From the IMG/VR virus record IMGVR_UViG_3300030107_003333, positions 1 through 59,210 of that record: 59,210 nucleotides of DNA. One strand, given 5' to 3'. The notes beneath the pieces were generated by a model. It ran no database searches. It worked only from the letters and a program-made list of their open reading frames with translations, and had not been told where the DNA came from. Source of the stretch: a virus. Taxonomy: Duplodnaviria > Caudoviricetes. Shown here one piece after another: positions 9,146-50,076 of this stretch; the first letter of the stretch is position 1, and every line of letters starts with the position of its first letter. Position numbers and translations under genes: made by a program.

Positions 9146-9742
9146 ATGGAAACTTTACACTTGTTCGTTGTCGAGTTAGAAAAAAAGATCAACGACACTA
9201 TTAAAACCGATTCTGGTTTAGAGCTTTATGTAGATAATAGATTTAATGAATTTGAACATAGGGTTACTGAGGGGCCAGTAGTATGCTCCCCCCGTAAATA
9301 CAATACAGGAGTTAAAAAGGGTGATACTCTGTATTTTCATCATCTAGTTGTAATTAATGAGGGTCAAGCCTTAACTGGTTCTGATAATCATTATTTAATA
9401 AAATATGATGATAAGCACACCATAAACAATCAGGCTATTGCATATAAGTGTCAAGACACTGGAGAAATAAAACCTTTGGCAGGTTGGTCTCTATTAAAGC
9501 CAGTAGAACAGAAAGCTGAGGTTGTTTCTGATATTATAGAGGTAATCAACACAGAGGATGAAAAATTACCCACCAGAGCAGAAGTTGCTTTTGATGCACC
9601 TTGGTTAGAGGAGTTAGGTGTAAAAAAAGGGGACATCGTAGGGTTTAAAAAAAATAGAGACTACAGAATCAAAATAGACGGGTTTGAGTACTATCGAACT
9701 CGTGCAGAAGATTTAATGTATATAATTGAAGAAAATGTTTGA
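9146..9742 (+). CDS. GroES-like co-chaperonin, two tandem GroES-like units
   Basis: KTDSGLEL mobile-loop-like motif, GVKKGDTLYF, then IKPLAGWSLLKP and GVKKGDIVGF. Confidence 0.7.
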   Translation: METLHLFVVELEKKINDTIKTDSGLELYVDNRFNEFEHRVTEGPVVCSPRKYNTGVKKGDTLYFHHLVVINEGQALTGSDNHYLIKYDDKHTINNQAIAYKCQDTGEIKPLAGWSLLKPVEQKAEVVSDIIEVINTEDEKLPTRAEVAFDAPWLEELGVKKGDIVGFKKNRDYRIKIDGFEYYRTRAEDLMYIIEENV

Positions 9743-22506: not shown

Positions 22507-22790
22507 TGGCACAACAAATTGGAGAAGATACTAAAGTAACATTTGACCTAAAGACAATAGGGTTGGGTGTAGCAGGGCTAGCAGCCCTAATAGGAATGTG
22601 GTTTACGCTACAAGCTGATATAGCAGAAGCAAAAGAGTTGCCAGAGCCATTGCCGTCAGAGGTCACACGTATGGAGTTTGATATGAAAGACCAATTAATC
22701 CGACAGACTATTATGACTACGCAAGAAGATGTATCAGAGCTTAAAGAAGACCTAGACCGCATCGAAGAAAAAATAGATAAACTTCAATAA
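22506..22790 (+). CDS. Single-pass membrane protein with C-terminal coiled coil
   Basis: Start MAQQ (TAATG overlap); IGLGVAGLAALIGMWF TM; VSELKEDLDRIEEKIDKL heptads. Confidence 0.75.
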   Translation: MAQQIGEDTKVTFDLKTIGLGVAGLAALIGMWFTLQADIAEAKELPEPLPSEVTRMEFDMKDQLIRQTIMTTQEDVSELKEDLDRIEEKIDKLQ

Positions 22791-23128
22791 TGAAACATTT
22801 AATTTACATATGTTTATTTGCAATGACATCTCTTGGTATGACTATACCAGATTCGGGGGTATGCGTCGTTGAGTTTAACGCAAGTTTTAACTCATCAAAT
22901 AGTGTTGATTGGATTGATGAGTTGAGTGATTGCAAAGGGAAGAGGGTTGATATACTTACTAATCCTGAATTACAAAAAGAACATAAAATTGTAGTAGTAC
23001 CTACTGTTATTGTATTTAACGATGGGGAAGAGGTGGAGAGATTTCAGGCGAATATTATGATGCAACTTGAGGCAACGAAAGATGAGGTTCAAGAAGCGGT
23101 AGACGAAATTATAATGAGTGCGTTTTAA
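22790..23128 (+). CDS. Exported thioredoxin-fold protein lacking CxxC
   Basis: Hydrophobic leader; VVEFNASFN in place of DFxAxWC; VVVPTVIVFNDGEEVERF thioredoxin C-half. Confidence 0.75.
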   Translation: MKHLIYICLFAMTSLGMTIPDSGVCVVEFNASFNSSNSVDWIDELSDCKGKRVDILTNPELQKEHKIVVVPTVIVFNDGEEVERFQANIMMQLEATKDEVQEAVDEIIMSAF

Positions 23129-31391: not shown

Positions 31392-32263
31392 TGGCATATC
31401 AAGACGTATCGTCATCGGGAATGAATTATGTTACCTTAACGGATATTATAGGTGACTTTAAAATTACTATGGATAGTGATGATTATGCCGCTAATGCATC
31501 GGATATTGCTATAAGAAATTTTGCTTTAAGAGGTATTAGGGAGTTTGGATTTGACGTAACCAGCAGAATCAAGTCTTTAAAACTGTCAATAGATACGTCA
31601 ACTAATACTGTTTCGCTACCTGACGATTATGTTGATTTAGTAAAAATAGGTATAGTGGATGATAACGGTATTATAAGAACTTTAGGTGAAAATAAACATA
31701 TAAATTATAGCAGGAAGTATGAAGTTGATGCTGCTGGTGATGCCACTAATGAAACTATTGATAGTCAAGAAGGGCCTTTAGATATAACGGCTAATCTTAT
31801 TTTAGACAGACAGAATGACAAAACAAGCACATCTAACGGTAATGCAGATAGCGGGGATTTAGATTATTATATTTTTGAAAACTATCTATATCAAGGGGGG
31901 TTAGGTAGATTATACGGTATTGGAGGGGGTAAAAGAGCAGGAGACTATAGAATTAATTTAGATCAAAACAGGATAGAGATAGATACGAACACTAGTACTG
32001 CGGAAGTTATAATAGAATATATAGCAGATGAAGCAAGGTCTACAAATCCAGTAATACATGTATATGCTGAGGAGGCTCTTCGTTGTTATGTGTATTATAA
32101 AATATGTGAAAGAAAATCAACAGTCCCAGCAAATGAAAAAGCAAGGGCTCGTTCAGAATATTATAACGAAAGAAGAAAAGCTAAAGCAAGACTAAGTAAT
32201 TTTAGCAAAACGGAAGCATTAAGAACTATACGTAAAAACTTTAAGTTAGCACCTAAGTATTAA
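31391..32263 (+). CDS. Tail ring / tubular protein
   Basis: RGIREFGFD, LPDDYVDLVKI, IIEYIAD, VHxxAEEAL-like motifs. Confidence 0.65.
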   Translation: MAYQDVSSSGMNYVTLTDIIGDFKITMDSDDYAANASDIAIRNFALRGIREFGFDVTSRIKSLKLSIDTSTNTVSLPDDYVDLVKIGIVDDNGIIRTLGENKHINYSRKYEVDAAGDATNETIDSQEGPLDITANLILDRQNDKTSTSNGNADSGDLDYYIFENYLYQGGLGRLYGIGGGKRAGDYRINLDQNRIEIDTNTSTAEVIIEYIADEARSTNPVIHVYAEEALRCYVYYKICERKSTVPANEKARARSEYYNERRKAKARLSNFSKTEALRTIRKNFKLAPKY

Positions 32264-35200
32264 TGATTAGTAAGGTAGTACCAAGAAAATTAGATCACTC
32301 TTCAGACTCGAAGGTTAGGCGTAAAGACGATATGTTTGATGCGCTTAATGTTTCTATATGGAGTGATGATAGAGGTGGAGCGTCAGGTAATGAAGGCGTT
32401 ATAAAGCCTGTAAAAAGTAATGTGTTGTTGGATGGCTCTGGAGCTTTTGACGACTCTTCTGACAAAGTAGTGCTCGGCAAGGTTATAGACAATAAATATG
32501 ATGTTATATACTTTTTTGTTTATTGTTCTAATGTTGCTGATTCTGGCGTGTATGCATACGACCCAACAAATTATCTTAGCGACTTTCATCCTGCAGAATC
32601 TGTATTTAAGGTATATGCTACTTCTGAATTTAATTTTCATCCAGAGAGTTTTGTAAAAGGGGATATTACTTACGTTCAGAAAAAAAGAGAATTTGGGGGT
32701 AGGGTGTATGAAGATACCCCTATGTTGTTTTTTACAGATAATAGAAACGAACCTAGAAAGCTTAATGTTTTAAGAGCTGTTTGGGACCCTACTGTTACCA
32801 CTTACACTGTAGGTAGTTCAGGCATTGTAGATTTTATTACAGCGTGTCCTAAAATGCCTACTATGCCAATTGAATTTGAGTTTGTTGAAGATCCAGATAC
32901 ACCATACAGCGAGTTCAAGAATGTAAATGGATTCCAATTTGCGTATCAGCTTGTTTATAAAGACGGGAATGTTAGCGCTATGTCGACTGTATCTGATATA
33001 GCTGTTCCTCCTTCTTATGTAAACCAAGGGGTTTTACCTGTACCATATCTAAACCTGCATAATATATGTAGATTAACAGTACCTCCACAAGCTATAACTT
33101 CAGAAGTTGAAAAAGTAAAGATACTGGCAAGAAGGGGTAATGATGGTAATTTCTTCGAGATTACGGAGATGGAGAATAGCCTTATTTATATAAATGGATT
33201 AATAGAAGGAATTATAATTTCAGGCGGGAATGTCGATGATATGATGGATCTATTCCAAGAGATAGATACATCTGAAGAATCGTCACAAATTACTCAAGAG
33301 AATCCTTTTGTGTATGATTTTAAAAACGATACGATAAATATTGCTATATCTCAAGATGATCAAATAAAACATTTCGATAATCTACCGAAAAGAGCAGAGT
33401 CTCAAAGTATTGTAGATAACAGACTCTTTTATGGGAACTATGTAGAAGGATTTGATCAGGTTGAGACTGAAGCTACAATTAATGCCGTACCTCTGCCGAG
33501 AACTCCAGATTTTACAAATTATGAGATAAAAATTGAACCAGCAACTTGTCTTAGCGCTAGCCTAACTTCAGACGGTATGTGGGAAAATCTCGACGATTTC
33601 GACAATGATGTAACTAATTCATGGAATAAAAATAGCGCTTTTGTTATTAATCCTTACGAAATGCCTGAAGATGGAATTGCTATTGGGGACGAAGTATCAA
33701 TTTCTTTCAGTTTAATACCTGACACAAATTGGCATATATATGATTCAACTAACAGTTATCACCAAACCAATCAACTAGGAGATTTTTTTGGACCCTCTGC
33801 AGGTACAGTTTTTGAAAGCGATTATGATTACACCCCTCTTGAGCTTGAGGGGCGTAGGGTTGACGGCTTCTTTCAGTATATAAGAGGGGATTTTGAGGAT
33901 CTAGTTTTTGATGTTCAGGCGGAAAGTAACTATGGCCTTGCTGAGCCTTGTTTGCCTGCTGTTTGCGATGACGGCGTACAAGACGCAGGGGCTAATAAAG
34001 TTTGGAAAAACTCTTACTCTGCTGAAGGGTCTATGGAATGCTTATACGGAACCAGCGCAGCTAACCCTTTAATAGTGCAGGGAGGTGAAATAAGCATTTC
34101 TATAAAAATAAAAGCTTTAGCTTCAAATAGCAAAGAGGCTGTTTCTCAATTTTTAGCTGATATCATTACTGGAGACCCAACGATATATTCAAATAATGCG
34201 TTTCAACTTTTGGAAGCAGAGATTAACTCTACTTACAGCTATGATTTAGGTTTACAGCATGAAGACAGCTTCAATCAAGGCGACCCATTTGGTAAGCTTA
34301 TAGTTATGGTAGGAGGCGATTCTCAAGAACTACAAACTAAAAATGCCCTTCAAAATCTAGCTGGAGCATTTATAATAAATAAAGCTACTGTAGAATTAGG
34401 ATTTTTTCTAGATGAAGCATATCATCAGCCCCTACCTGAAAGCTACACAGCTTCTGGTCACGGCAATTGGATAGGTGAAGGTTCTGGATGGGATGAAGAA
34501 ATTGGTAAGAGAAGGATAGGAATTTATGTAAAAAGAATTACTGATGTAGAGACTATGACTTGCCAAAGAAGGCTGTTATCTTCTAGCCCTTGGACAGTTC
34601 TTGACAATTCTGAAGTCATGACTTTTAACTCAGCTCAGAACTTACCTTATGGGCCTTTTGAACTTGTAGCTCAAGAATTTGACTCATATTTAAATAACGA
34701 GTTTCTAGGTGGTGACACAAGTGGGCCTACTGATGGATGTTTTAAGTGGTGGAGAGGTTATCTTGATTATTCTCAAGAGAATTATCCCTTCTTTGAAGAC
34801 GGTGTGAATGGCCCTCCTCAGTTTAGCGTTATGGACGGAGAAGGGGGGATTGGCGGCGGACCTACTTCAACACCTTTACCTATCTGGGTTTCTCCTTACG
34901 ATGATTGTCAAATAGTTACATCCCCTGAGGGGTCAACACAGTATCTTAACTGGTCATCTAATATCGCTATGATAAAAGGTGTAGGAAATTTAGGGAGCGC
35001 CCCTTTGGTAAGTTTTACTCCTAATGGAGTGTTAACCCCTAACTCTGCTTATATTCAACAAACGGGTGCTGGCGGAGGTGCAGCCAACGAGCATAAATTA
35101 GGAACTATAGTTTCCAATAATGTGATTCTTCATAAGCCAAACTTGAGTAATTCTAACCTTCCTAATCTAAGTGGCAATTCTGATGAGGTTATAGCGATGC

Positions 35201-38200
35201 CTATGTTTTATCGAACTGGACAAACTAGCAATCCTGCAGTGTTTTACGAATGGGAAGCCATTACAGTTGAAGGAGGTGATTTTCAACTAATTCCGAACAC
35301 TACAAACTATATATTTCCCTATAGCTGGATGGATAGAGCTCATTCTACGGCCAATATATTTAAGTTTTCGTTTTATAATGCAACGCTTTATGCAGAAGGT
35401 TCTAAATCTTATAAAAGTGCGGCAAATCATACTTTTGGAATTGTTTATTATGATTCTAGAGGTAGAGCTAGTAATGTTTCGCCTTTAGGGTCTGCTTTTT
35501 CCCCAGCTTATCATGAAAGAGCTGAAGGTTTTGAAGGTAAGGTGGAAATGCAGATTCAAATGAGTCATGATCCCCCTCCTGATGCAGAGACGTTCCAAAT
35601 AGTGTATTCTGGGAATACTTCTGTTACTAGGTTTATACAGTATGCTACTAGCGGGGCGTACATATCAACTAGAATGTACGAATCTGGTGGCGGCCATTTT
35701 TATGTAGGTTTAAATTACTTACAGGGGGGCGATATAGCGTATCACGAAAGTTTTGGGGCAAGAGCTTCTGAAGGTGGTGTTCCATATACTTACAGAGATG
35801 GAGATATGCTCAGGGTTATATCTTATTATAGTACAGGAAGTCTAGACTCTAGAGTTTGGCTTTCCGATATTTATGAATTTGAAGTTTCGTACACTCAGGA
35901 AATGCCTGACGATAGTATGAGTCCTCTATATGTAGCTGCAATAGACGGTGCAAGTACACATCCAGCAAAAAGAGGTACGTTTATTAAAGTTAAAGACAAT
36001 CCTAACGCACTTGGCTTTTCTTTTGCTGATATACAGTCAGGAAATAATCAACCAGATTCACAGACCCACAACTGGGGAAAAAGATGTATTGTAGAAATAT
36101 ACAACCCTGCTGACGCTGTAGCTGAAGATGATTTAATTTTTTACGAAACGGGCGATGTTTTTAGTATAACTCAACATGACAGTCTTTTAACTTTATCTGG
36201 TGGTGATGTATGGTGGAGACACGTACCCGTAAATATGGCTGAACATGACGGGGCAATGTTTACAAATCTTATTGATTTAGATTTTTCAGAATCAAACTTC
36301 AAAAACTACTCTTTAGAGACACAAGCATTTAGCGATTTTGTAAGAGGTTCAGATGTTCTTGATAAGGGAAAGCTTAAGATTATAGTACCTAACTCTCAAG
36401 AGGTTGTCCGTTCATCTTCTATTACGTACTCTGAAAAAAATAATCCAGCGTCAAAGCTGTTTACTCTTACGTCTTTTAATCCTGCAAAAATGCAATTTAA
36501 AGACATGCCTGCCGAATACGGTAACATAAACTACATGGTTAATCAACAAGACTCTATGTTTGTTATACAGTCTAGTAGGTGTAGTTCAGTTCCAGTAAAT
36601 CGAAACTTAATAACGACAGCTTCTAATGACGAGTCACTTATAGCTGCAACAAAAGTTCTTGGCACGGAAAGGTATTATGCTGGTGAATATGGGTGTGACA
36701 ATAATCCTGAATCTGTATGTGTTGTTGGGCCAAATATTTATTTTGCTAGCAAAAGCAGCAAGGAGGTTTATAAGTTTAATTCATCGACAGGAATAGATGT
36801 TATTTCTAATACAGGTATGAGGTCTTTCTTTAGGGATCTTTTTAATAGCGCTATTAATGATGAAGGTGTGGTTAAGGTTGTAGGAGGTTATGACCCAATA
36901 AAAGATGAATTTATATTAAGTGTATATAATCAACCTTCTATTGAATATACTGAAGATGCTGATGATCCAACAGGAGCAGCTAGTGGAGGTGTTGTATTCC
37001 AAGACACCACTACTATTAATTCTTTAGAGCAGCAGTTGTACAATGTTATTCAAGCTATAACTTCATTACAAACAACTGATGGAGAGACACTCTTCCCTCA
37101 AGGGATTTTACCTCCGCCTTTACAGCAGTTCTATCAAAACTTCTCAGGTACGAATGAATTGGATTACTTAAATGGTTTAGATGCTGATGGTAGCGGCATT
37201 ATGGAACCAGAAGAAGTAGTTTCGTCTAATGCAGTAACATATCCGCTTATGTTGCAGGTTTTTGAAACTATTGCACTTATAGAAAACAATGCTATTGTAG
37301 ATATTATTAACACAATAACTTCCGTTATCGACGACCCTTCTATAGACACTGCTCAAGAGATACAAAATTACATATCTAATTTACAGGTAGATAACGCTAC
37401 ACTAACTGAAAGTCTTTCAACCCTTCAGTCTAGTTATGATACTTTACAGTCTGATTATAATGTCTTGCAAACCGATTATGCAACGCTTCAGACTGACATA
37501 GCTTCTAATGAAGCCGATATAGAGCAACTTAATCAACAGATAGTAGATCAATTAGCTCAAATAGCTCAGCTACAAACTCAAGCTAATGAGGATGGTAATA
37601 CTATAACTGATTTAAACGCTCAACTTGCGGAATACGCTGCTCAAGCTGGACTTGATGCAGAGACAATAGCTCAGTTACAGAATCAAGTCAATATAGACGC
37701 TGAGACAATAGCTGAATTAGAAGCTGCTGCTCAAGTAGCTGAAGGGACTATAGCCGATTTAAATAATCAGCTATCAAGTGCAAACGCTCAAATAGCAGCT
37801 ATGCAAGAATCACTTGCAGTCCAAGCAGCGGAAATAACAGCTTTAACTCTAGCTAATGCAGAAGCAACAGCTCTTGTAGCGGGTTATGAACAAAACATAA
37901 GCGCTTTAGAGGGTCAAATATTAAATCTGGAAGACGCTTTAGCATCATCAGCATCTTCAATTGAATTATTAGAATCTCTTGTTGCACAACAAGCGACATT
38001 CTCTGCGGAGGCGGAGGAGTCAATAGACGAGCTTACTGCCGAAAATCTTGCTCTACAAACTCAGCTAGACTTAGAGGCTTCTGCTTTAAGAAGTGCTTTA
38101 GTTCAATTAGATATGCAGTTACTTCATGCTGGATACGGTACAGTAAATGTAGCTAATTCAAACATTCAAGCAAACGTAAATAATTTAGAATTTGATGGTG

Positions 38201-38892
38201 TTGCGGAAAGAATTAACACCGCCGTAAATAGAGTAAATACGGCTTTAAGTCACCTTGGAGACCTTCAGTTAGCCTTTTCAGATTCTGGTGATTCTACTAC
38301 TACCATAAATCCTAAAGGTGTAAAATTTGGGTATTTTTCAGAAGAAGGCTCTAGCGAGGTTAACAACCTTCAAGGAGAAAGAGTAAAACCATTTGCTTGG
38401 GGGAATCCAAATTTAGATAATGGAGCTCAAATAAAAGCTTTTGCAAATGCTGTCAACGACGTTAAAACATTAGCTAATATTTTTGCTGGAATGAATCCAG
38501 ATTCTTTTGCGGCTGCAGCAGGTGTTGGTACTGAACACTTTCAGTATGATTCGTCAGGAAACTTAATGAACCAAGAGGAAATTGCTGCTCGTGGGTATCT
38601 TGGTAGTTCTATAGTAGATATGCTGCAAAGTTATGTTAATACGAATGGTGGTGGTGAAATTACTTCATCAACTTTAGAGGAAATTTTAGCTAACGATGGT
38701 ATTAGCATGTCTCAGTTTGTAGACCTATTAGCTGGACTAAGTAATATTGCAGGAAACAATGATTTCCTAAAAGCAAGGTATGATGCTTCAGGAACAGGAG
38801 AGGTTAACCAGAGTGATTTCTTAACTTTTATAAGTCTTTTTGGTGAGGCTTATGATACAGATAACCAAGAAAAATACACGGTAAATATATAA
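32263..38892 (+). CDS. Tail stabilisation/nozzle-like protein (N-part) with coiled-coil extension
   Basis: DALNV, LFFTDNRNEPRKLN, NRLFYGNYVEG, GIVYYD..GR, YGCDNNPES, GGYDP..DEFILS motifs, then heptad-rich tail. Confidence 0.75.
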   Translation: MISKVVPRKLDHSSDSKVRRKDDMFDALNVSIWSDDRGGASGNEGVIKPVKSNVLLDGSGAFDDSSDKVVLGKVIDNKYDVIYFFVYCSNVADSGVYAYDPTNYLSDFHPAESVFKVYATSEFNFHPESFVKGDITYVQKKREFGGRVYEDTPMLFFTDNRNEPRKLNVLRAVWDPTVTTYTVGSSGIVDFITACPKMPTMPIEFEFVEDPDTPYSEFKNVNGFQFAYQLVYKDGNVSAMSTVSDIAVPPSYVNQGVLPVPYLNLHNICRLTVPPQAITSEVEKVKILARRGNDGNFFEITEMENSLIYINGLIEGIIISGGNVDDMMDLFQEIDTSEESSQITQENPFVYDFKNDTINIAISQDDQIKHFDNLPKRAESQSIVDNRLFYGNYVEGFDQVETEATINAVPLPRTPDFTNYEIKIEPATCLSASLTSDGMWENLDDFDNDVTNSWNKNSAFVINPYEMPEDGIAIGDEVSISFSLIPDTNWHIYDSTNSYHQTNQLGDFFGPSAGTVFESDYDYTPLELEGRRVDGFFQYIRGDFEDLVFDVQAESNYGLAEPCLPAVCDDGVQDAGANKVWKNSYSAEGSMECLYGTSAANPLIVQGGEISISIKIKALASNSKEAVSQFLADIITGDPTIYSNNAFQLLEAEINSTYSYDLGLQHEDSFNQGDPFGKLIVMVGGDSQELQTKNALQNLAGAFIINKATVELGFFLDEAYHQPLPESYTASGHGNWIGEGSGWDEEIGKRRIGIYVKRITDVETMTCQRRLLSSSPWTVLDNSEVMTFNSAQNLPYGPFELVAQEFDSYLNNEFLGGDTSGPTDGCFKWWRGYLDYSQENYPFFEDGVNGPPQFSVMDGEGGIGGGPTSTPLPIWVSPYDDCQIVTSPEGSTQYLNWSSNIAMIKGVGNLGSAPLVSFTPNGVLTPNSAYIQQTGAGGGAANEHKLGTIVSNNVILHKPNLSNSNLPNLSGNSDEVIAMPMFYRTGQTSNPAVFYEWEAITVEGGDFQLIPNTTNYIFPYSWMDRAHSTANIFKFSFYNATLYAEGSKSYKSAANHTFGIVYYDSRGRASNVSPLGSAFSPAYHERAEGFEGKVEMQIQMSHDPPPDAETFQIVYSGNTSVTRFIQYATSGAYISTRMYESGGGHFYVGLNYLQGGDIAYHESFGARASEGGVPYTYRDGDMLRVISYYSTGSLDSRVWLSDIYEFEVSYTQEMPDDSMSPLYVAAIDGASTHPAKRGTFIKVKDNPNALGFSFADIQSGNNQPDSQTHNWGKRCIVEIYNPADAVAEDDLIFYETGDVFSITQHDSLLTLSGGDVWWRHVPVNMAEHDGAMFTNLIDLDFSESNFKNYSLETQAFSDFVRGSDVLDKGKLKIIVPNSQEVVRSSSITYSEKNNPASKLFTLTSFNPAKMQFKDMPAEYGNINYMVNQQDSMFVIQSSRCSSVPVNRNLITTASNDESLIAATKVLGTERYYAGEYGCDNNPESVCVVGPNIYFASKSSKEVYKFNSSTGIDVISNTGMRSFFRDLFNSAINDEGVVKVVGGYDPIKDEFILSVYNQPSIEYTEDADDPTGAASGGVVFQDTTTINSLEQQLYNVIQAITSLQTTDGETLFPQGILPPPLQQFYQNFSGTNELDYLNGLDADGSGIMEPEEVVSSNAVTYPLMLQVFETIALIENNAIVDIINTITSVIDDPSIDTAQEIQNYISNLQVDNATLTESLSTLQSSYDTLQSDYNVLQTDYATLQTDIASNEADIEQLNQQIVDQLAQIAQLQTQANEDGNTITDLNAQLAEYAAQAGLDAETIAQLQNQVNIDAETIAELEAAAQVAEGTIADLNNQLSSANAQIAAMQESLAVQAAEITALTLANAEATALVAGYEQNISALEGQILNLEDALASSASSIELLESLVAQQATFSAEAEESIDELTAENLALQTQLDLEASALRSALVQLDMQLLHAGYGTVNVANSNIQANVNNLEFDGVAERINTAVNRVNTALSHLGDLQLAFSDSGDSTTTINPKGVKFGYFSEEGSSEVNNLQGERVKPFAWGNPNLDNGAQIKAFANAVNDVKTLANIFAGMNPDSFAAAAGVGTEHFQYDSSGNLMNQEEIAARGYLGSSIVDMLQSYVNTNGGGEITSSTLEEILANDGISMSQFVDLLAGLSNIAGNNDFLKARYDASGTGEVNQSDFLTFISLFGEAYDTDNQEKYTVNI

Positions 38893-42547: not shown

Positions 42548-45500
42548 ATGAACGGAGTTACTTTACAAAATCCATTTCAAACAAGCCAAGATCCTCAAGA
42601 TAAAAGGCAGTACGACTTTGATCAAAGTTTAGAAGCGTTGCTGGCTCAAAACCATTCTCCTGATAAAATTGTTAAGATTATGGGTTCGGCAGGGTTCGAT
42701 CCGTATGATGTGGCTAGCAGTATAAATAAAAGGTATGATGATCAGAGGAGGCAAATGTTTAACGATCATAAACAACTGCAAGATCAACTTAAAGCAGAAA
42801 AGGAAGCATATGACAACATCTTAAAAAAAAAAGATATTGCATTAGAACAAGATGGGGAGCAGTCTGTCTTTGGTTTGGATTTGAGTTTAAGTCCAGACGA
42901 TCAAGCTAAAGCTTACTATGACGGTTTATCTAACGATCAAAAATGGGATCAGTTTGGTATACTATCTAAATCTTTAGCTTTAGATAAAATTAAAACAGAT
43001 GTATTACCAACTTTAACTCCTCCAGAACCTGTTAACCCACCTTTAACATCTGAGCTTGCTGTTGATAATAACTTAGCGGCGCTTAATCTTATTGACAATA
43101 CTGCTCTTGAAGTTTATAGCGACTACACAGCGGCATCTAAATTAAAAACAGCTATAGCTAATAACGACACTAAAGAGATTATTAGCTTAATAAATTACTT
43201 TAACGCTCAAAAAAGACTTACTGAGTTTCCAACAGAAGAGGCATCATCTGTTTGGGATTATATGCAAAACTTAGGTTGGTCGGTTGTTTCTCCAGTTACG
43301 TCATATGTTTTGCCAGAAAGAGACCAAGATCCAGAACCTTTTAGTCAGGACTTTCTGAAAAATCTAGATTTTGAAGTAGATAAAATTTTAAAAGAATCTA
43401 GTAACGCTCAATCTAATGTTATGAATATGATTAATGATTTTAATTATAGAAATAATATTCCGATGCAATACAATCCATCAAGCGAAATGGATTACAATAT
43501 ATTTTTAAGAAACTCTGTAAACAGAAGCTTAACAAGGGCGGAGGAAGAAGAGGCTTCTCTGAATGAGTTTATATATTCTGAACTAACAGAAGATGAAAGA
43601 AAGGATCCAGTAAAAAGAAAAGAGGCTGAAGATTACTATTATGGGACTATACCTGATACATTTTTTGGAAATTTACTGGCGGCAGACAGAGCTAGAGGGA
43701 CTTGGGGAGAATGGTGGGATACATGGCAGAATAATTTTGGACTAGCTTTAAATCCAATAGTAGCAGAAACGTGGGGTGAAGATATGGGCGAGGTAATGAA
43801 AAACGAGCTTCTTGAAATAAAAAGGCAGCAGGACTTAAGAGAATACGATAAAAAAGTACAGCTGGCTAGAGATTTTGATATTACTCCAGAGCAGTTGAAG
43901 ATGCCTATTGATCAAAGGTTTTCTGAAACTATTAATGGTAATATTTCTATGGGGGACTTTTTTGCTACCACTACTGCTAATACAGCAGAAATCATGTCAG
44001 ACGCCCTTATTAGTTCTGCCGAGTTTATGATTCCTTATATAGGTCCAGCAGTAATGGGTCTTGATATATACAGTCAAACTTACGCTGACGTTGTAGCTAA
44101 CCAACCACATATAAGCCCTCAAGAAGCTATGATGACATCTGCTCCTAAAGCTGTTTTTGAGGTTCTTATAAATAAACTTATGTTTGCGAAAGGTATTGGT
44201 TCTGTTGGGGCTTTGAAAGATGTAGCGGCAAACCTTGGAGCTAAAGAAACAATTAAACAAGTTGGAAAACGAGCTGCCGTAGAGAGAGGATTACTTGGTA
44301 ATGCCTTTACCAAGTATTTACTTCCAGAAGCTATGGAGGAAGGAATCGTTTCTATAACCAATCAAACTATTGATGCTGTTGCCGATGTTGCACAGGGTAG
44401 AGCTGTAAGGGATCTTAATACATATGAAGTTTCTGATGCGTTTTGGGCTGGTATGGTTGGAGCCGTAGGCCCTGCTAGCGTAGCTACATTTACAAGTAAT
44501 CTAGGTCACACCAGAACAATGGATGACAGATTAAAAACTGTGGAAGGTATAAATGACTTAAAAAGTCAAATAAGTTCTGAAACAAATCCTGATATTAAAT
44601 CAAATAAAGTTGCTCTCCTTCATGATGAAATAAAAAAGATGAAAATACTTGCTACAGATGAAGCAGCGTATTACAGTGCTCTTAATCCTGAAGAGGTGAG
44701 GAGTATTATGTCTATAAACCAAGAACTTTCTCAAACAAGAGATATCTTAAAAAGAGGTAGATATTTTACCGATGAAGTCGTTGAGGAGAGCGATATTGAA
44801 GGGCTTGAAAATCGTATGCAGGATCTGTACAAAGAGAAAGCTAATATTGAGAATGAAGCTATAAGAAGGGCTGAAGCTGAAATGAGAGCTCAGGAAAGAT
44901 CCAATATAGTTAACAATGAAGATGCAGCTAAAAGAAACGAAACTCGTACTGGCACTAAAGCTGATATTGAGAAAGCTGCTGAAGAAGCATCTGAAAGAGA
45001 GAGAACTATTGATGATGATATAGAAGACGCTAGAAGAGGAGATGTAGAAGCTCAAGAAAAACTAAAAAAGTATGGTATAGAATGGGAATACACTCCTGTT
45101 TATAGGTTTATTTCAGAATCAGAAGTAGAAGCTTTAAAGAAAGGAAAAACCATCAAGGGTAAAAATCCTAAATTTGGAGCTGATGTAACTATAGATCCTG
45201 AAGGTGAGGGCGCTGGAGCAACTACTACAGAATATAGAGTCACTTTTAAAGAAGATGGATTCGATAACAAAAAGACAGGTTCGAGAGTCCGTATGAAGAA
45301 TAAACAGGACGGATGGGTGTCAGAAGGTTACTCTATGGATGATGTTGCTAAGATTGAAAAGAAAAGCGCTGATGGAACATGGGAGACAGTTTATGAAGCT
45401 GATGCACCAACAACAGACGCTATAGATAAACCGCAACAAAAAACTTCTTATAATACCATATTAGAATCGGAAGTATCAAAATCGGCATTAAAAAGCATCC

Positions 45501-48500
45501 TTCTATCAATTAGAAAATCTTACCCCAACTCCTATGCGGTAGACCTGCTAAGCGATGTTATAAAAGAAAAGCCTATAGATGACTTTAATTATGACTATTT
45601 GAATGACGAGAACTTAACGTATCAGTCTGTTATTGATATGTTAGTTTCAGAAGAGATATTTAACACGACACGAGAGGCTGTCGATAAACTTTCTATTATA
45701 GGAAAGGGAATCGTAATGAAAGATATTGCTGGTAAATCGGTAGATAAAGCCACTGCCCAAGAACAAACTGAAGTAAAACCTACTGAGACAGTTGAAAAAG
45801 ATTATGATACTGTAATTAAAGATTATATGAACTCAGTAGAGGATCTTGAATTATTTTATGAAGAGCTAATTGTAAGAGATTCTCCTAAGATGGAATCAAG
45901 ATCTCAAATGTCAGTTGTTATTAACGGATATGAAGACTTTATGGATTTGTGGGCTGCTATTACTGGTAATGGAAAGCTTCCATCTGCTATGCAGAACATA
46001 TACTTTATTAAAGATGATAAAAGATATAATGTAAACCCACCAAGCCCTAAACTTGATGAAGATGGTAATGTGATAGACATGCCTCTAAAAAAGACATTGC
46101 GTGATTATTTACTTCAAAAAGCAGCTGAAGAAGAACTAACAACACCAAAAGAAGATGTCTCAGAAGAAGATGTAGAATTACCAAAAGAGCTTACAGAAGA
46201 AATCGATCAAGGGATATTTGAAAAATACACTGGTGAAAATCCATTTCTTAAAGGTTTAAATTTAGCAGAAAGAGTTCGTAAAAAATATTTTAGATCACAA
46301 AAACTGTTACCTAAAACTGTATCTAGACTTCTTGAATTAGAGGGAGGAGCTTTAGCAGCTCACTTTAAAGATGTGGAGTCAAGCTTTAAGGATTTTTGGA
46401 AAATGTACGACGCTTATAAGGGGGATAAAGAAGCTCTCTTAGAAGACTATGACGCAGCTTTAAGAGGTGACGTTGAGGCGCTTGACAGACTCCCTGAAGA
46501 ATTTGCCATTCACTTAAAGAAAGTTAGGAATCAAATAGACGGGCTAAGCCAAGAAGCGATAGATGTCGGTGTGTGGGATTTATCTACAGAGGAGGGAAGA
46601 AAAACAGCTCGTACTGTAAAAGATAAACTCGGTAAATACTTAACAAGGTCTTTTGAAATCTTTGATAATGATAACTGGGCTAATGAAGTTAGCGATAAAG
46701 TAGTTGTAGCTGCTAAAAATTTAATTAGACAGCAGATCAAAGATGCGGCAAAATTAGAATACGAAAGCGATCCTGCTCTCAAGGAGAAATTTGAAACTTT
46801 TGAAGATTACCTTACTGACAGAGTTGATGGGTTGGTAAATGAACTCTTAACCAAAGAGACAGCTAAAGGTTATATAAAAGGGAAAGCATTACTAGGAAAG
46901 GGCTCAGACATAAGTAAAAAGCTTAAAGATATACCTGCTGAGATAAGAGCACTGATGGGTGAGTATGCAGACCCGATGAAGAATTACGCTAAAAGCATAT
47001 TAAAATTAGCGTCAGCAGTAGAGGGCACTAAAACTATGCAGAAGGTAAGAGAGGCTGGCTTAGGTAAATGGTTGTTCGAGAATCCTACAGGACAGTTTGT
47101 TTCTCAAATAGCTGCTGAAGGTAGCGAGACCATGAGGCCTCTCAATGGCTTGTATACCACACCAGAAATAGCAGAAGCTATTAAAGAAGTACCCCAAACA
47201 AAAAGCGCTTTAGTTGAGCTTTATATAAAACATGTTTCCTCTAGGGTTAAATGGGCTAAAACTATTGGGTCTGTAGCTACTCATATGAAAAACATCTTAG
47301 GTAACTTAGGTTTTATGTGGGCTAATGGTCATACAGATATTTCTCAAATGGGTATTGCTTTTAAGACTATAAAAAATGACATTCAAAACAGAGGTGATGA
47401 AGCGTTAAGAGAAAGGCTGAAAGAATATATTCAACTAGGACTTGTAAATCAAAACGTAGCAATAAGAGAAATAAACGATATGTTTAGCTCTGAAAATTTT
47501 GAGAATGCTATGATGGATAATCTAAACTCTCAAAGAACTTCTAAAAAAGCTAAGCAAGCTAAAGGTGTTGTTAAAGGTATAAAACGACAGCTTCTTGATA
47601 CTAAGTCTGTTATTTTGCCCGCAAAGTTTGAGCAAATGCTTGATGACTTATATCAAGCGGAAGATGACTTTTTTAAGATTGTTGCGTTTGAAATTGAGAG
47701 AAATAGATACGCAGATGCTTTATTTGGAAAGCCATATGAAAAACTAACTCCTGAAGAGAAGAAAGCTCTTAATGAATACATAGTAGATAAAATAGTTAAA
47801 CAAACTTACCCTTCTTATGATAGGGTTCCAACAGCAGTAAGAGCTCCTAGTCAGATATGGCTAGGCAACTTCGTTTCATTCGTTGCTGAATCATACAGAG
47901 TGAGTTACAATACGCTTTCTCTTTCAGCTCAAGAGATGGCGTCTGATAATCCAAAATTAAAAAAGATTGGTATGAAAAGACTTGCTGGGGCGCTTTCGTA
48001 TGTAAGCGCTAAGAGTGGGTTAGTAGCTGGGTTTGGAACATTGGCTGGAGTAGGGGCTATGGGTATAATGGGGGCGTTTACAGACGATGAAGAGGAAAAG
48101 AGAAAGAGAAAGGCGACAAAGAATTTTGTTGCTCCATGGTCTAAAGATTCTGATTTACTTTACTACAGAGTAGGAGACGGTAAGTTTTCTTACATTGACT
48201 TATCTGCTTCAGATCCTTATGGTCAAATAAGCAGGGTCGTAAACGCTACTGTAGGTAGCGGAGAAGGTGTAGAGTCAATGATAGACGGACTTGTAGTTGC
48301 TTTAAGTCCTTTCGTTGATCCAGACATAGGAACGAGGAGGCTTATGAACATCATCTACAATCAAGATGATTACGGAAAACAGATATACAATCCTGAAGAT
48401 CCTATGGTAGATCAAATAGCTGATATAACAGCAGCATTTTATGAGGTTATAGAGTTAGGAAGTGTGACTTCGATGAGAAAAATCTGGAATGCAGAAGGGT

Positions 48501-48838
48501 TTACAGACACATCTATAGAACTAGTTGGACAGATTAGTGGATTAAAGCCATATACAGTAGATGTAGCAGAAGCTTTTGGATATAAGATGGCGAGATATAA
48601 GGTTAGGATAGCTAATGCTCGTAAACTTAAATACGAGGATGTAAATGAAGCCAACAAAGCCCTACAAGGAATTTATCAAGAGATATATGAGGATGCAGAA
48701 GCTGCTCAGGCGTTAGGAGTAACCTTTAAAGATTTAAGAGAAGTAATGATGCAATGGGGTGGGTTAGGAAAACAAACCTCAAAAGACATATTATTAAACA
48801 GATATAGACCCTTAACAATAGAAAGAAGAAATGAGTAA
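42548..48838 (+). CDS. Giant ejection / polyvalent virion protein
   Basis: 2096 aa, helical, hydrophobic Gly/Ala segments, last large late gene. Confidence 0.65.
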   Translation: MNGVTLQNPFQTSQDPQDKRQYDFDQSLEALLAQNHSPDKIVKIMGSAGFDPYDVASSINKRYDDQRRQMFNDHKQLQDQLKAEKEAYDNILKKKDIALEQDGEQSVFGLDLSLSPDDQAKAYYDGLSNDQKWDQFGILSKSLALDKIKTDVLPTLTPPEPVNPPLTSELAVDNNLAALNLIDNTALEVYSDYTAASKLKTAIANNDTKEIISLINYFNAQKRLTEFPTEEASSVWDYMQNLGWSVVSPVTSYVLPERDQDPEPFSQDFLKNLDFEVDKILKESSNAQSNVMNMINDFNYRNNIPMQYNPSSEMDYNIFLRNSVNRSLTRAEEEEASLNEFIYSELTEDERKDPVKRKEAEDYYYGTIPDTFFGNLLAADRARGTWGEWWDTWQNNFGLALNPIVAETWGEDMGEVMKNELLEIKRQQDLREYDKKVQLARDFDITPEQLKMPIDQRFSETINGNISMGDFFATTTANTAEIMSDALISSAEFMIPYIGPAVMGLDIYSQTYADVVANQPHISPQEAMMTSAPKAVFEVLINKLMFAKGIGSVGALKDVAANLGAKETIKQVGKRAAVERGLLGNAFTKYLLPEAMEEGIVSITNQTIDAVADVAQGRAVRDLNTYEVSDAFWAGMVGAVGPASVATFTSNLGHTRTMDDRLKTVEGINDLKSQISSETNPDIKSNKVALLHDEIKKMKILATDEAAYYSALNPEEVRSIMSINQELSQTRDILKRGRYFTDEVVEESDIEGLENRMQDLYKEKANIENEAIRRAEAEMRAQERSNIVNNEDAAKRNETRTGTKADIEKAAEEASERERTIDDDIEDARRGDVEAQEKLKKYGIEWEYTPVYRFISESEVEALKKGKTIKGKNPKFGADVTIDPEGEGAGATTTEYRVTFKEDGFDNKKTGSRVRMKNKQDGWVSEGYSMDDVAKIEKKSADGTWETVYEADAPTTDAIDKPQQKTSYNTILESEVSKSALKSILLSIRKSYPNSYAVDLLSDVIKEKPIDDFNYDYLNDENLTYQSVIDMLVSEEIFNTTREAVDKLSIIGKGIVMKDIAGKSVDKATAQEQTEVKPTETVEKDYDTVIKDYMNSVEDLELFYEELIVRDSPKMESRSQMSVVINGYEDFMDLWAAITGNGKLPSAMQNIYFIKDDKRYNVNPPSPKLDEDGNVIDMPLKKTLRDYLLQKAAEEELTTPKEDVSEEDVELPKELTEEIDQGIFEKYTGENPFLKGLNLAERVRKKYFRSQKLLPKTVSRLLELEGGALAAHFKDVESSFKDFWKMYDAYKGDKEALLEDYDAALRGDVEALDRLPEEFAIHLKKVRNQIDGLSQEAIDVGVWDLSTEEGRKTARTVKDKLGKYLTRSFEIFDNDNWANEVSDKVVVAAKNLIRQQIKDAAKLEYESDPALKEKFETFEDYLTDRVDGLVNELLTKETAKGYIKGKALLGKGSDISKKLKDIPAEIRALMGEYADPMKNYAKSILKLASAVEGTKTMQKVREAGLGKWLFENPTGQFVSQIAAEGSETMRPLNGLYTTPEIAEAIKEVPQTKSALVELYIKHVSSRVKWAKTIGSVATHMKNILGNLGFMWANGHTDISQMGIAFKTIKNDIQNRGDEALRERLKEYIQLGLVNQNVAIREINDMFSSENFENAMMDNLNSQRTSKKAKQAKGVVKGIKRQLLDTKSVILPAKFEQMLDDLYQAEDDFFKIVAFEIERNRYADALFGKPYEKLTPEEKKALNEYIVDKIVKQTYPSYDRVPTAVRAPSQIWLGNFVSFVAESYRVSYNTLSLSAQEMASDNPKLKKIGMKRLAGALSYVSAKSGLVAGFGTLAGVGAMGIMGAFTDDEEEKRKRKATKNFVAPWSKDSDLLYYRVGDGKFSYIDLSASDPYGQISRVVNATVGSGEGVESMIDGLVVALSPFVDPDIGTRRLMNIIYNQDDYGKQIYNPEDPMVDQIADITAAFYEVIELGSVTSMRKIWNAEGFTDTSIELVGQISGLKPYTVDVAEAFGYKMARYKVRIANARKLKYEDVNEANKALQGIYQEIYEDAEAAQALGVTFKDLREVMMQWGGLGKQTSKDILLNRYRPLTIERRNE

Positions 48839-49268
48839 AAAGAAAATAAAAGACACCAAGCTTGGATCTTGGTTAGCAGAAAAAGCGCCGCAGGTGCTTG
48901 GCGTAGTAGGTGATTTATTGCCAGACAGCGGAGGCTTAGGTATAGTAAAAAACCTTATTGACACTGATGATAGTGTTGACTCTGAGGAGGCTCAACGTGT
49001 AATCGACGCAGAGGTTAGATTCCAAGAAAACGTCACAGAGCGTTGGAAAGCTGATATGGGTAGTGATGTTAAACTAGCTAAGTTAATACGCCCAGTGACG
49101 CTTATATGCCTTATGGGGATGTTTATGATAACTATGTTTATAGACAGCATGGATAACGTAGCATTTAACGTAAAAGATTCTTACGTTTCTTTGCTTGAAT
49201 TGCTAATGCTTACTGCCTTTGGCGCATACTTTGCTGGTAGAACTATAGAGAAAAAAGCAAGTAAATAA
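48831..49268 (+). CDS. Holin (3TM/GTA-type holin-like)
   Basis: ERWKADMGSD..L.K.IRP, two TM helices, AYFAGRTIEK. Confidence 0.75.
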   Translation: MSKKKIKDTKLGSWLAEKAPQVLGVVGDLLPDSGGLGIVKNLIDTDDSVDSEEAQRVIDAEVRFQENVTERWKADMGSDVKLAKLIRPVTLICLMGMFMITMFIDSMDNVAFNVKDSYVSLLELLMLTAFGAYFAGRTIEKKASK

Positions 49269-49273
49269 TTTGC

Positions 49274-49281
49274 TATATTTG
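49274..49281 (+). promoter_or_regulatory. Bacteroidota -7 element
   Basis: TATATTTG upstream of 49301 mini-ORF. Confidence 0.7.
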
Positions 49282-49300
49282 TGGGCTAAATTATCACCTC

Positions 49301-49453
49301 ATGCCTACAGAAAAAAACTACTATAAAGAGCAATTTAAAGCTCCGTCATTTCTTGATCAGAATAAGCTAAAAGAACAAGAACAAAAGATTGAGTCTGGAG
49401 AAATAAAATGCTCGACAGATAGTCATGAAGACTGCGAGGCTTGCGGTGCTTAA
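49301..49453 (+). CDS. 50-aa protein ending in RNR-alpha-like Cys tail (not in ORF track)
   Basis: Hand translation: MPTEKNYYKEQFKAPSFLDQNKLKEQEQKIESGEIKCSTDSHEDCEACGA. Confidence 0.75.
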   Translation: MPTEKNYYKEQFKAPSFLDQNKLKEQEQKIESGEIKCSTDSHEDCEACGA

Positions 49454-50076
49454 TAGCACTCAATAACTTCACTGTACACGCCGTTGTATAGTGTATTAAT
49501 TTTTCGAGATAATTGAGTTACCGTGCCTTCTTTTGTGCGGTGAGTTATTATATTGTATAATGTTTTATACTTAGGGTTATAATGCGATAACTCTTCATGG
49601 CAATCTTTATACTTTTCCTCTAAAGTCTTGTTCCTTAACTCTAAATATTCTACTTGCTGTTCTAACTTTTTTGTCTTTTTATGTAGAGTGCAAATAGTTT
49701 CTTGTAGAGATTGATTAATAGACTCGGCTCTTACAGCATCAGCTCTTTCTAAATCTTCAAGAAATCTTTTCTTGCATAGCAAATACTTTTCTTTCAGTAG
49801 TTTATCGCCTTTAAGAATAAACTTAAAATCTTTATTGTAATGTATTATAGTAGCATGATCTTTACCTATAAATTTACCTATTCTAGAGTAATTATAACCA
49901 CGCTCTCTCATTATATATGAGTACACTCTTCTAGCATCAACATTTTCTCTAACCCTATGTATAGACATCATATCAGACTCAAACACTTCGTCTACTATAG
50001 CTTGTAGGATATTACCATCTCTATCCTTATTATCGTCCAACATTTGAAACCCGTCGACTAATTTAGGTTCTTCCAT
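49450..50076 (-). CDS. DnaA domain IV-like HTH protein with coiled coil
   Basis: VDARR...IGKFIGKDHATIIH resembles the DnaA_C signature IG..FGxRDHTTVxH. Confidence 0.8.
   Translation of the reverse strand: MEEPKLVDGFQMLDDNKDRDGNILQAIVDEVFESDMMSIHRVRENVDARRVYSYIMRERGYNYSRIGKFIGKDHATIIHYNKDFKFILKGDKLLKEKYLLCKKRFLEDLERADAVRAESINQSLQETICTLHKKTKKLEQQVEYLELRNKTLEEKYKDCHEELSHYNPKYKTLYNIITHRTKEGTVTQLSRKINTLYNGVYSEVIECY

Follow-up and report, generated by a model that had tools for sequence, protein, structure and literature searches.

Does a tailed phage encode, as a free-standing protein, the redox tail of ribonucleotide reductase (RNR), and what would it do with it? The question is raised by a short gene in the virus record analysed here (the window: the whole stretch of 59,210 bases, a complete or nearly complete record with a CheckV completeness of 96%). 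PHROG matches to a large terminase, portal, holin, primase-helicase and nucleases mark the window as a tailed phage, and no DNA polymerase is recognisable among them. The terminase shares 42-48% identity with those of an uncultured phage and of podophages of Flavobacterium and Cellulophaga. An earlier note on this DNA had described a 50-aa ORF with a C-terminus like that of class I RNR alpha subunits, and we recovered this ORF as described there (coordinates in Table 1). The product is MPTEKNYYKEQFKAPSFLDQNKLKEQEQKIESGEIKCSTDSHEDCEACGA, and its C-terminal end is KCSTDSHEDCEACGA-stop. The Cys layout, C37-x7-C45-x2-C48-G-A-stop, places the CxxC pair (C45-x2-C48) within the last six residues.

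Table 1 Features of the window around the mini-protein gene and elsewhere (positions are nucleotides of the window)
Feature	Position	Strand	Remarks
GroES-like gene	9146-9742	+	198 aa; phage GroES-like co-chaperonin family phrog_13932, E 5e-51
Thioredoxin-fold-like ORF	22790-23128	+	structural block
Giant virion-block ORF	32263-38892	+	2209 aa; the only one of the two giant ORFs with a PHROG match (virion structural protein)
Giant virion-block ORF	42548-48838	+	2096 aa
Holin gene	48831-49268	+	phrog_3427, E 4.7e-23; one or more hydrophobic segments; 32-nt gap to the mini-gene
Candidate promoter motif TATATTTG	49274-49281	+	19 nt before the mini-gene ATG
Mini-protein gene	49301-49453	+	50 aa plus stop; ATG 49301, TAA 49451-49453; unannotated phage family
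Conserved N-terminal half, residues 16-32, SFLDQNKLKEQEQKIES	49346-49396	+	predicted helix; alignments A1 and A2
Tail module, residues 35-50, IKCSTDSHEDCEACGA	49403-49450	+	copy of the NrdA C-terminal redox tail, C37-x7-C45-x2-C48
DnaA_C-like HTH gene	49450-50076	-	PF08299, E 6.7e-9; convergent, stop overlaps the mini-gene stop; opens the - strand replication block
Terminator-like hairpin and T-run	49470-49503	+	hairpin 49470-49493; closes the + strand late block

Homologues of the mini-protein were found at every scale of search. A word-index search of a 5.8-billion-protein set returned 16 short homologues, and an exhaustive HMM search of 1.84 billion proteins returned 57 cluster representatives of 34-161 aa at E<=1e-3, nearly all with the match at their own C-terminus. 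By pattern scan, IMG/VR contigs contain 170 relatives, and all locus counts over 80 given below refer to the best 80 of these 170. The frames are stand-alone and short (45-103 codons, stop to stop) in 80/80 loci and yield 50 distinct mini-proteins of 42-81 aa; a typical family member has 40-60 residues. The RNR catalytic barrel, PF02867, is absent from the mini-protein chain. One representative (P0017, 145 aa, from a contig of 685 b) joins a whole mini-protein to an unrelated-looking N-terminus, and we treated it as a read-through or chimera rather than a true longer homologue. The nearest ESM Atlas clusters are unnamed proteins of 38-49 aa; the nearest named cluster (score 0.81), which we take as a lead only, contains PF02867 in 14% of its members and is mostly from Bacteroidota.

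Selection on the gene was estimated from 67 distinct nucleotide versions of its core. Over the last 34 codons, the median dN/dS was 0.057 with a mean dS of 1.15 (419 informative pairs), and one Phe, one Leu, one Gly, three Cys and one Glu were invariant in 67/67 cores. The mini-gene is under strong purifying selection, and the mini-protein family is widespread in marine viral metagenomes. Conservation of the ORF, on which the earlier note had made its own reading depend, is thus borne out by both the homologues and the dN/dS.

Existing resources do not name this family. No Pfam, PHROG, NCBIfam or PADLOC family matches the mini-protein, and Pfam gave 0 families at E<=1. Neither blastn of the region nor tblastn with two family members gave a true match among 50,697 GenBank phage records, a set from which records close to the window were possibly left out; a single match at E=6 was discarded as spurious. 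Among the papers found by full-text search, none described a stand-alone RNR alpha tail or a phage mimic of one. Since it is absent from Pfam, PHROGs, NCBIfam, PADLOC and the literature found, the family is invisible to current annotation.

We compared the family with NrdA proteins to examine the last residues. The consensus of the last 16 residues of the family is h-x-C-[SN]-h-[DE]-x-P-E-D-C-E-x-C-[GS]-[GSA]-stop. Among 177,635 distinct PDB sequences, the sole match of the family profile was yeast Rnr1, as three construct sequences, with residues 873-888 (the very end of the protein) aligned to profile positions 35-50 at E 0.042. When 185,579 prokaryotic species, represented by one genome each, were scanned with a back-translated pattern, 2 loci were confirmed. 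Both are the last residues of NrdA genes (800 and 806 aa), one in a Bacteroidia MAG, where it adjoins an NrdB gene, and one in Hymenobacter. Applied to all six frames of 301 Bacteroidota genomes, the family profile found 10 matches at E<=0.01, nine of them the exact ends of independently located NrdA genes and the tenth in a 32-codon frame; no stand-alone tail copy was found in these genomes. Over the last 16 residues, identity peaks at 15/16 (family member P0036 against the NrdA of locus L001), and the window tail is identical to the same NrdA tail at 11/16 positions. Of 16,852 frames of at least 30 codons, only 80 mini-ORFs and 25 NrdA frames carry the strict end motif, although this set of ~1.02 Mb was fetched for mini-genes and NrdA and is therefore biased and no neutral sample.

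The likeness spans only ~16 residues, and the 1.84-billion-protein search returned no NrdA at E<=1e-3. It is nonetheless real and specific, as first suspected from the window alone, and it runs from C-terminal end to C-terminal end. Judged by its residues, the tail of the mini-protein closely copies the C-terminus found in eukaryote-type class Ia RNR alpha. One of the 17 sequences of alignment A1 (P0016) has lost the first Cys, which is likewise missing from Flavobacteriaceae NrdA, which points to the CxxC as the working pair of the tail.

The N-terminal half of the mini-protein has a conservation of its own. F17 and L18 are invariant within it, as are G33 and E34 just after it, and the family motif reads [FW]-x(2,4)-F-L-D-[QK]-x-K-L-K-x-Q-E-x-K-I-x-S-G-E. 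This motif is absent from the linkers of the NrdA C-termini that we compared. AlphaFold2, given a 33-sequence alignment, predicts one helix at residues 20-32 (pLDDT 70-77; model mean 65). Residues 41-50 of the tail have a mean pLDDT of 54 and only a 3-residue helical turn (42-44), a low confidence that does not equal disorder. The sequence is hydrophilic and acidic throughout, with no membrane segment, signal peptide or lipobox, and no thioredoxin fold was detected, either as a Pfam match or in the one-helix model.

Several other identities were considered for the chain and set aside. A zinc-ribbon or rubredoxin-like knuckle was dropped in view of three Cys with one CxxC and a low-confidence tail, as against four ligands in two folded CxxC-type knuckles. 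For a RiPP precursor of the SCIFF type, no radical SAM enzyme or other maturase was seen among the neighbours scanned, which are a holin, an HTH protein, nucleases, a primase-helicase, endolysins and virion proteins; for a spanin or antiholin, the membrane segment, signal peptide or lipobox is lacking. The F-x-x-x-x-F-L-D motif was also considered as a mimic of the C-terminal peptide of NrdB (FKLDEDF in L001), but the spacing differs and the motif is internal; the family profile matched no NrdB end in the 301 Bacteroidota genomes. Some relatives carry extra Cys-rich N-termini (C-x-C...C-x-C, with 4-8 more Cys; L038:5950-6126, L048:510-683, L051:2703-2876, P0029 and P0030). These stretches hint at a metal site or further redox centres.

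NrdA tails of Bacteroidota fall into distinct types. We collected 52 NrdA C-termini, representing 51 genes, and took their owners from the source names of identical proteins. Three-Cys tails with 6-7 residues between the first two Cys make up 26/52 rows, a shorter three-Cys form 6/52, and tails with the CxxC pair only 20/52. The three-Cys tail was found in Hymenobacter, Chitinophagales and Chitinophagaceae MAGs, Cryomorphaceae/Flavobacteriales MAGs, Kapabacteria and unclassified Bacteroidota. Flavobacteriaceae NrdA (Flavobacterium, Tenacibaculum, Zeaxanthinibacter and Aegicerativicinus) has the two-Cys tail, in which a short helix (...EEYKAM...) precedes PEDCEMCGS, and only its last ~9 residues are common to the mini-protein. 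The comparison with Flavobacteriales NrdA that had been suggested for this ORF is therefore divided in outcome: Cryomorphaceae-like MAGs share the three-Cys tail, whereas the Flavobacteriaceae tail differs from it.

The tail classes are also visible within the individual sets. Flavobacteriaceae C-termini (L118-L142) are two-Cys, with the conserved short helix M-[ST]-x-E-E-[YFM]-[KR]-A-[ML] before the tail, and those from other orders (L083-L112) are three-Cys, as in eukaryotic R1. The tail type of Pedobacter and Ferruginibacter is shorter, and Bacteroidota tails thus form lineage-specific classes.

Rare variants of the tail recur in both groups of proteins. Mini-protein P0060 has an unusual Gly-for-Pro form (CSIENG.DC) that is also carried by NrdA from a Cryomorphaceae-labelled MAG (L090) and from Flavobacteriales MAGs (L102). 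A form shorter by one residue (CSID.PDC) is shared by NrdA L111 and mini-protein P0066, and NrdA and mini-proteins alike include members that have Leu or Ile instead of Glu ahead of the last Cys pair. The N-terminal halves of P0060 and P0066 are homologous to those of the rest of the mini-protein family. Because these two keep the family N-terminal half, the pattern looks like a single gene family with a tail that follows NrdA tails, as opposed to repeated fresh captures, and the parallels between variants would make the mini-tail host-matched. Whole NrdA genes borne by phages of Flavobacteriaceae (phiST and Larrie) end in a tail of the Flavobacteriaceae type, so tails track host lineage. The overlap of ~9 residues with Flavobacteriaceae tails, together with the absence of the family from cultured phage records, suggests that the hosts of the carrier phages are marine Bacteroidota outside Flavobacteriaceae.

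Do these phages have an RNR of their own that the mini-protein could serve? The statement that the window holds no RNR gene stands: neither PF02867, PF13597 nor PF00268 has a match in the window record. We extended the search to 34 carrier records (the window and the 33 longest contigs among the best 80 relatives) and found NrdB in 0/34 and NrdD in 0/34. RNR alpha occurs in 1/34, as a fragment at a contig end, and PF02867 is absent in 14/15 other carrier records at >=90% completeness. The fragment (L113, G309:C1:1-348) comprises 115 C-terminal residues cut by the contig start, in a record that has no NrdB; it ends in ...NCAVCEA, a tail type unlike that of the mini-protein. No catalytic thioredoxin or glutaredoxin was detected in the 34 records. 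On this gene content, the carrier phages would depend wholly on host RNR.

A weak thioredoxin-fold match was seen in the structural block. The ORF concerned (Table 1; also L114-L117) is 112-122 aa long, scores 17-22 bits against a cut-off of 23.5 and recurs, below threshold, in 13/34 carrier records. It has an N-terminal segment resembling a signal peptide and no CxxC, and we rejected it as a partner redoxin on those grounds.

The position of the mini-gene is informative about when it might be expressed. The commonest neighbours are a holin of the window type and a Peptidase_M15_3 endolysin: one or the other directly adjoins the mini-gene in 43/80 loci, usually on its upstream side, and lies within three ORFs in 48/80, the synteny being missing in the remaining 32/80. 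Of 64 same-strand upstream neighbours, 57 end <=10 nt from the mini-gene start and 29 overlap it, with a median gap of 1 nt. In alternative loci, the mini-gene lies between virion proteins of >1300 aa and small proteins with an N-terminal R-K-[YF]-x-x-G-G. Given these lysis and virion neighbours, the mini-gene is normally part of late operons. Several consecutive virion-module proteins of 80 to >1300 aa that flank the mini-gene (at L005, L009, L013, L018, L063 and L077) begin M-x(1,8)-R-[KR]-[YF]-x-x-G-G, often followed by P-H-P-H; the R-[KR]-[YF]-x-x-G-G start may be a common targeting or processing signal. Two representatives, P0065 and P0021, are apparent fusions of the tail module with the C-terminal part of an M15-type endolysin. 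As single cluster representatives, they may, like the short-contig P0017, be frameshifts, truncated calls or chimeras.

The earlier note had also given the mini-gene its own promoter, and this claim is weakly supported. The octamer TATATTTG, which we take to resemble the Bacteroidota -7 box, is present upstream of the gene. However, its class (TAnnTTTG) is not enriched in the window, with 76 found against 71.6 expected, and we dropped the idea that it marks promoters generally. At this place, TATCTTCG and TATATTCG (TTCG) stand in the two closest relatives, although ~30 nt of upstream sequence are conserved, and the octamer is no feature of the family. The mini-gene may still have a promoter of its own at this site. 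The exact octamer also lies 4 nt before two other gene starts on the + strand (3917->3929 and 18862->18874); at 23978->24006, as at 49274->49301, the distance is 19-20 nt.

In class I RNR, the Cys pair on a disordered tail of the alpha subunit passes electrons to the active-site disulfide and receives new ones from thioredoxin or glutaredoxin, as set out in three papers (PMC9669993, PMC11903788 and PMC4078304). We propose that the mini-protein acts as a host-matched copy of this NrdA tail, supplied in trans to the thioredoxin-NrdA relay in order to help it, and we give this proposal an even chance of being right. The mini-protein would be a free tail of class Ia, eukaryote-like NrdA joined to a short conserved helix, made in trans and probably at high level from late lysis/virion operons. 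The free copy would engage the partners of the native tail, NrdA and thioredoxin; these are the most plausible partners because lineage-specific tail variants are copied and the CxxC is invariant. As an extra, diffusible dithiol carrier, it would reduce the NrdA active site while the native tail is away recharging, and the conserved N-terminal helix would provide docking energy that a free peptide lacks. Host dNTP output would thereby be raised or sustained for phage DNA synthesis. What the sequences show is a conserved stand-alone gene in late operons of phages without RNR, with a tail that mimics NrdA and shares its variants; that the product binds NrdA or thioredoxin, cycles its thiols and acts as a helper is inferred.

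The direction of the effect is where the nearest competing explanation departs. The mini-protein might instead occupy the active-site entrance or the tail-docking surface of NrdA, or soak up thioredoxin, so that re-reduction is hindered and host RNR or thioredoxin-dependent processes are throttled. The mimicry evidence (the PDB match, the 301 genomes and the 15/16 identity) serves this explanation equally well, and late, presumably high-level expression suits a stoichiometric competitor. Phage mimics are blockers more often than helpers, and yeast Sml1, which interferes with the Rnr1 tail, offers a model; the several nucleases of the window phage could yield nucleotides from host DNA. Small disordered inhibitors of RNR are known in eukaryotes, Sml1 among them (PMC11941123). 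A phage without RNR has no evident gain from less dNTP synthesis, however, and the strict conservation of CxxC suggests that chemistry is needed beyond shape. A simple CxxC peptide is also a poor trap, because thioredoxin resolves mixed disulfides. We consider blocking unlikely and favour the supply of an extra tail that helps, because the carrier phages appear wholly dependent on host RNR and because a second reductant stimulates mouse RNR. That mouse study reports up to 3-fold higher activity when the second reductant worked on the active site itself, alongside the tail route, and its authors argue that the oxidised tail must depart for recharging (PMC4078304).

Several observations weigh against a helping role all the same. 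Tethering keeps the native tail locally far more concentrated than a free copy would be, so the gain from the latter is not obvious, and the likeness is limited to ~16 residues. The linkage to holin and endolysin genes (43/80 adjacent, median gap 1 nt) implies late expression, whereas nucleotide-supply genes of phages are usually early. The absence of RNR may simply be a trait of the phage lineage. The nearest cultured relatives infect Flavobacteriaceae, and the NrdA tail of that family has just ~9 residues in common with the mini-protein.

The same genomic position invites a function in lysis or in the virion, with the helix binding a holin, an endolysin or an internal virion protein and the NrdA-like tail serving as a handle recognised by thioredoxin or NrdA; the mini-protein would then regulate lysis timing by redox state or be packaged and ejected as an effector. 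The adjacency and spacing counts given above, the alternative placement beside large virion proteins and the apparent endolysin-tail fusions all fit such a function. Yet the mini-protein lacks a membrane segment, signal peptide and lipobox, accessory genes often sit at the ends of late operons, the synteny fails in 32/80 loci, and the fusions come from single cluster representatives that may be frameshifted or truncated calls. We know of nothing that ties NrdA tails to lysis, and we regard a lysis or virion function as decidedly improbable. A more specific version, in which a tail mimic in the lysis cassette reads or perturbs the thioredoxin-RNR relay and so couples lysis timing or holin/endolysin activity to dNTP synthesis, is a long shot; to our knowledge, phage lysis control offers no parallel for a redox clock input taken from an enzyme tail. 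If the resemblance to NrdA reflected only a common metal site, the mini-protein could be a Zn- or Fe-binding peptide outside any redox relay, in keeping with its three invariant Cys, its invariant or near-invariant acidic residues and the Cys-rich N-termini of some relatives. Against it stand the count of only three Cys with a single CxxC, a first Cys that is dispensable in P0016, the low confidence of the tail model despite 33 aligned sequences and the copying of NrdA at non-Cys positions, and we hold it to be highly improbable. If the gene were what is left of a captured, decaying nrdA 3' end, it would be clear why the likeness is confined to the last ~16 NrdA residues, but a remnant or chance ORF would not stay intact in 80/80 loci or show a dN/dS of 0.057 with saturated synonymous sites, and NrdA has no counterpart of the conserved N-terminal half. 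This last explanation is refuted by the intact ORFs and the dN/dS, and its probability is practically nil.

If the mini-protein does supply host NrdA with an additional tail, it would be the first natural enzyme redox tail provided in trans by a virus and a minimal auxiliary metabolic gene, with ~130 bases in place of an RNR operon of ~3.5 kb. It would represent a new viral route into the DNA-precursor supply of the host and a natural probe of the re-reduction half-cycle of RNR. A recent cryo-EM study (PMC11903788) describes this half-cycle, in eukaryote-type (NrdAe) enzymes, as diverse and unresolved. Eukaryotic R1 has the same tail type, so the way in which helix and tail engage the enzyme could inform the design of RNR inhibitors or activators.

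Compared with known systems (NrdA itself, whole phage RNRs and Sml1-type regulators), the mini-protein is, by sequence, a member of none. With the NrdA/Rnr1 tail it shares the extreme C-terminal motif C-[SN]-h-[DE]-x-P-[ED]-x-C-[EL]-x-C-[GS]-[GSA]-stop, a hydrophobic residue two before the first Cys and the same kinds of variants. The NrdA tail is described as flexible (PMC9669993), and the low pLDDT of the mini-protein tail would be compatible with flexibility there too. Unlike NrdA, the mini-protein is phage-encoded, lacks the RNR catalytic domain and has its own conserved helix (F-L-D...L-K...K-I-x-S-G-E). Whole class Ia RNRs of phages, such as Cellulophaga phage phiST and Tenacibaculum phage Larrie, are likewise aimed at dNTP supply, but they comprise full alpha (and beta) genes with NrdA tails of the host-family type, whereas the mini-gene keeps only the last ~16 NrdA residues within a protein of 42-60 aa.

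Spd1, Hug1 and Dif1 are small disordered regulators of RNR, related in kind to Sml1. Sml1 is described as an R1-binding inhibitor (PMC11941123). Like these four, the mini-protein is small, may be largely disordered, and would act on the large RNR subunit at the tail-dependent regeneration step. It matches 0 Pfam families at E<=1 and 0 NCBIfam families, and we found no sign of membership in the Sml1/Spd1/Hug1 families. Sml1 does not copy the tail and is cellular, not viral; it inhibits, whereas the mini-protein may act in either direction. Cyanophage CP12 is another small, disordered, phage-borne protein; it has redox-active Cys pairs and probably redirects host metabolism toward DNA-precursor synthesis. 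CP12 reproduces a whole host regulator of Calvin-cycle enzymes, in another target pathway, whereas the mini-protein resembles a fragment of the enzyme that it would serve.
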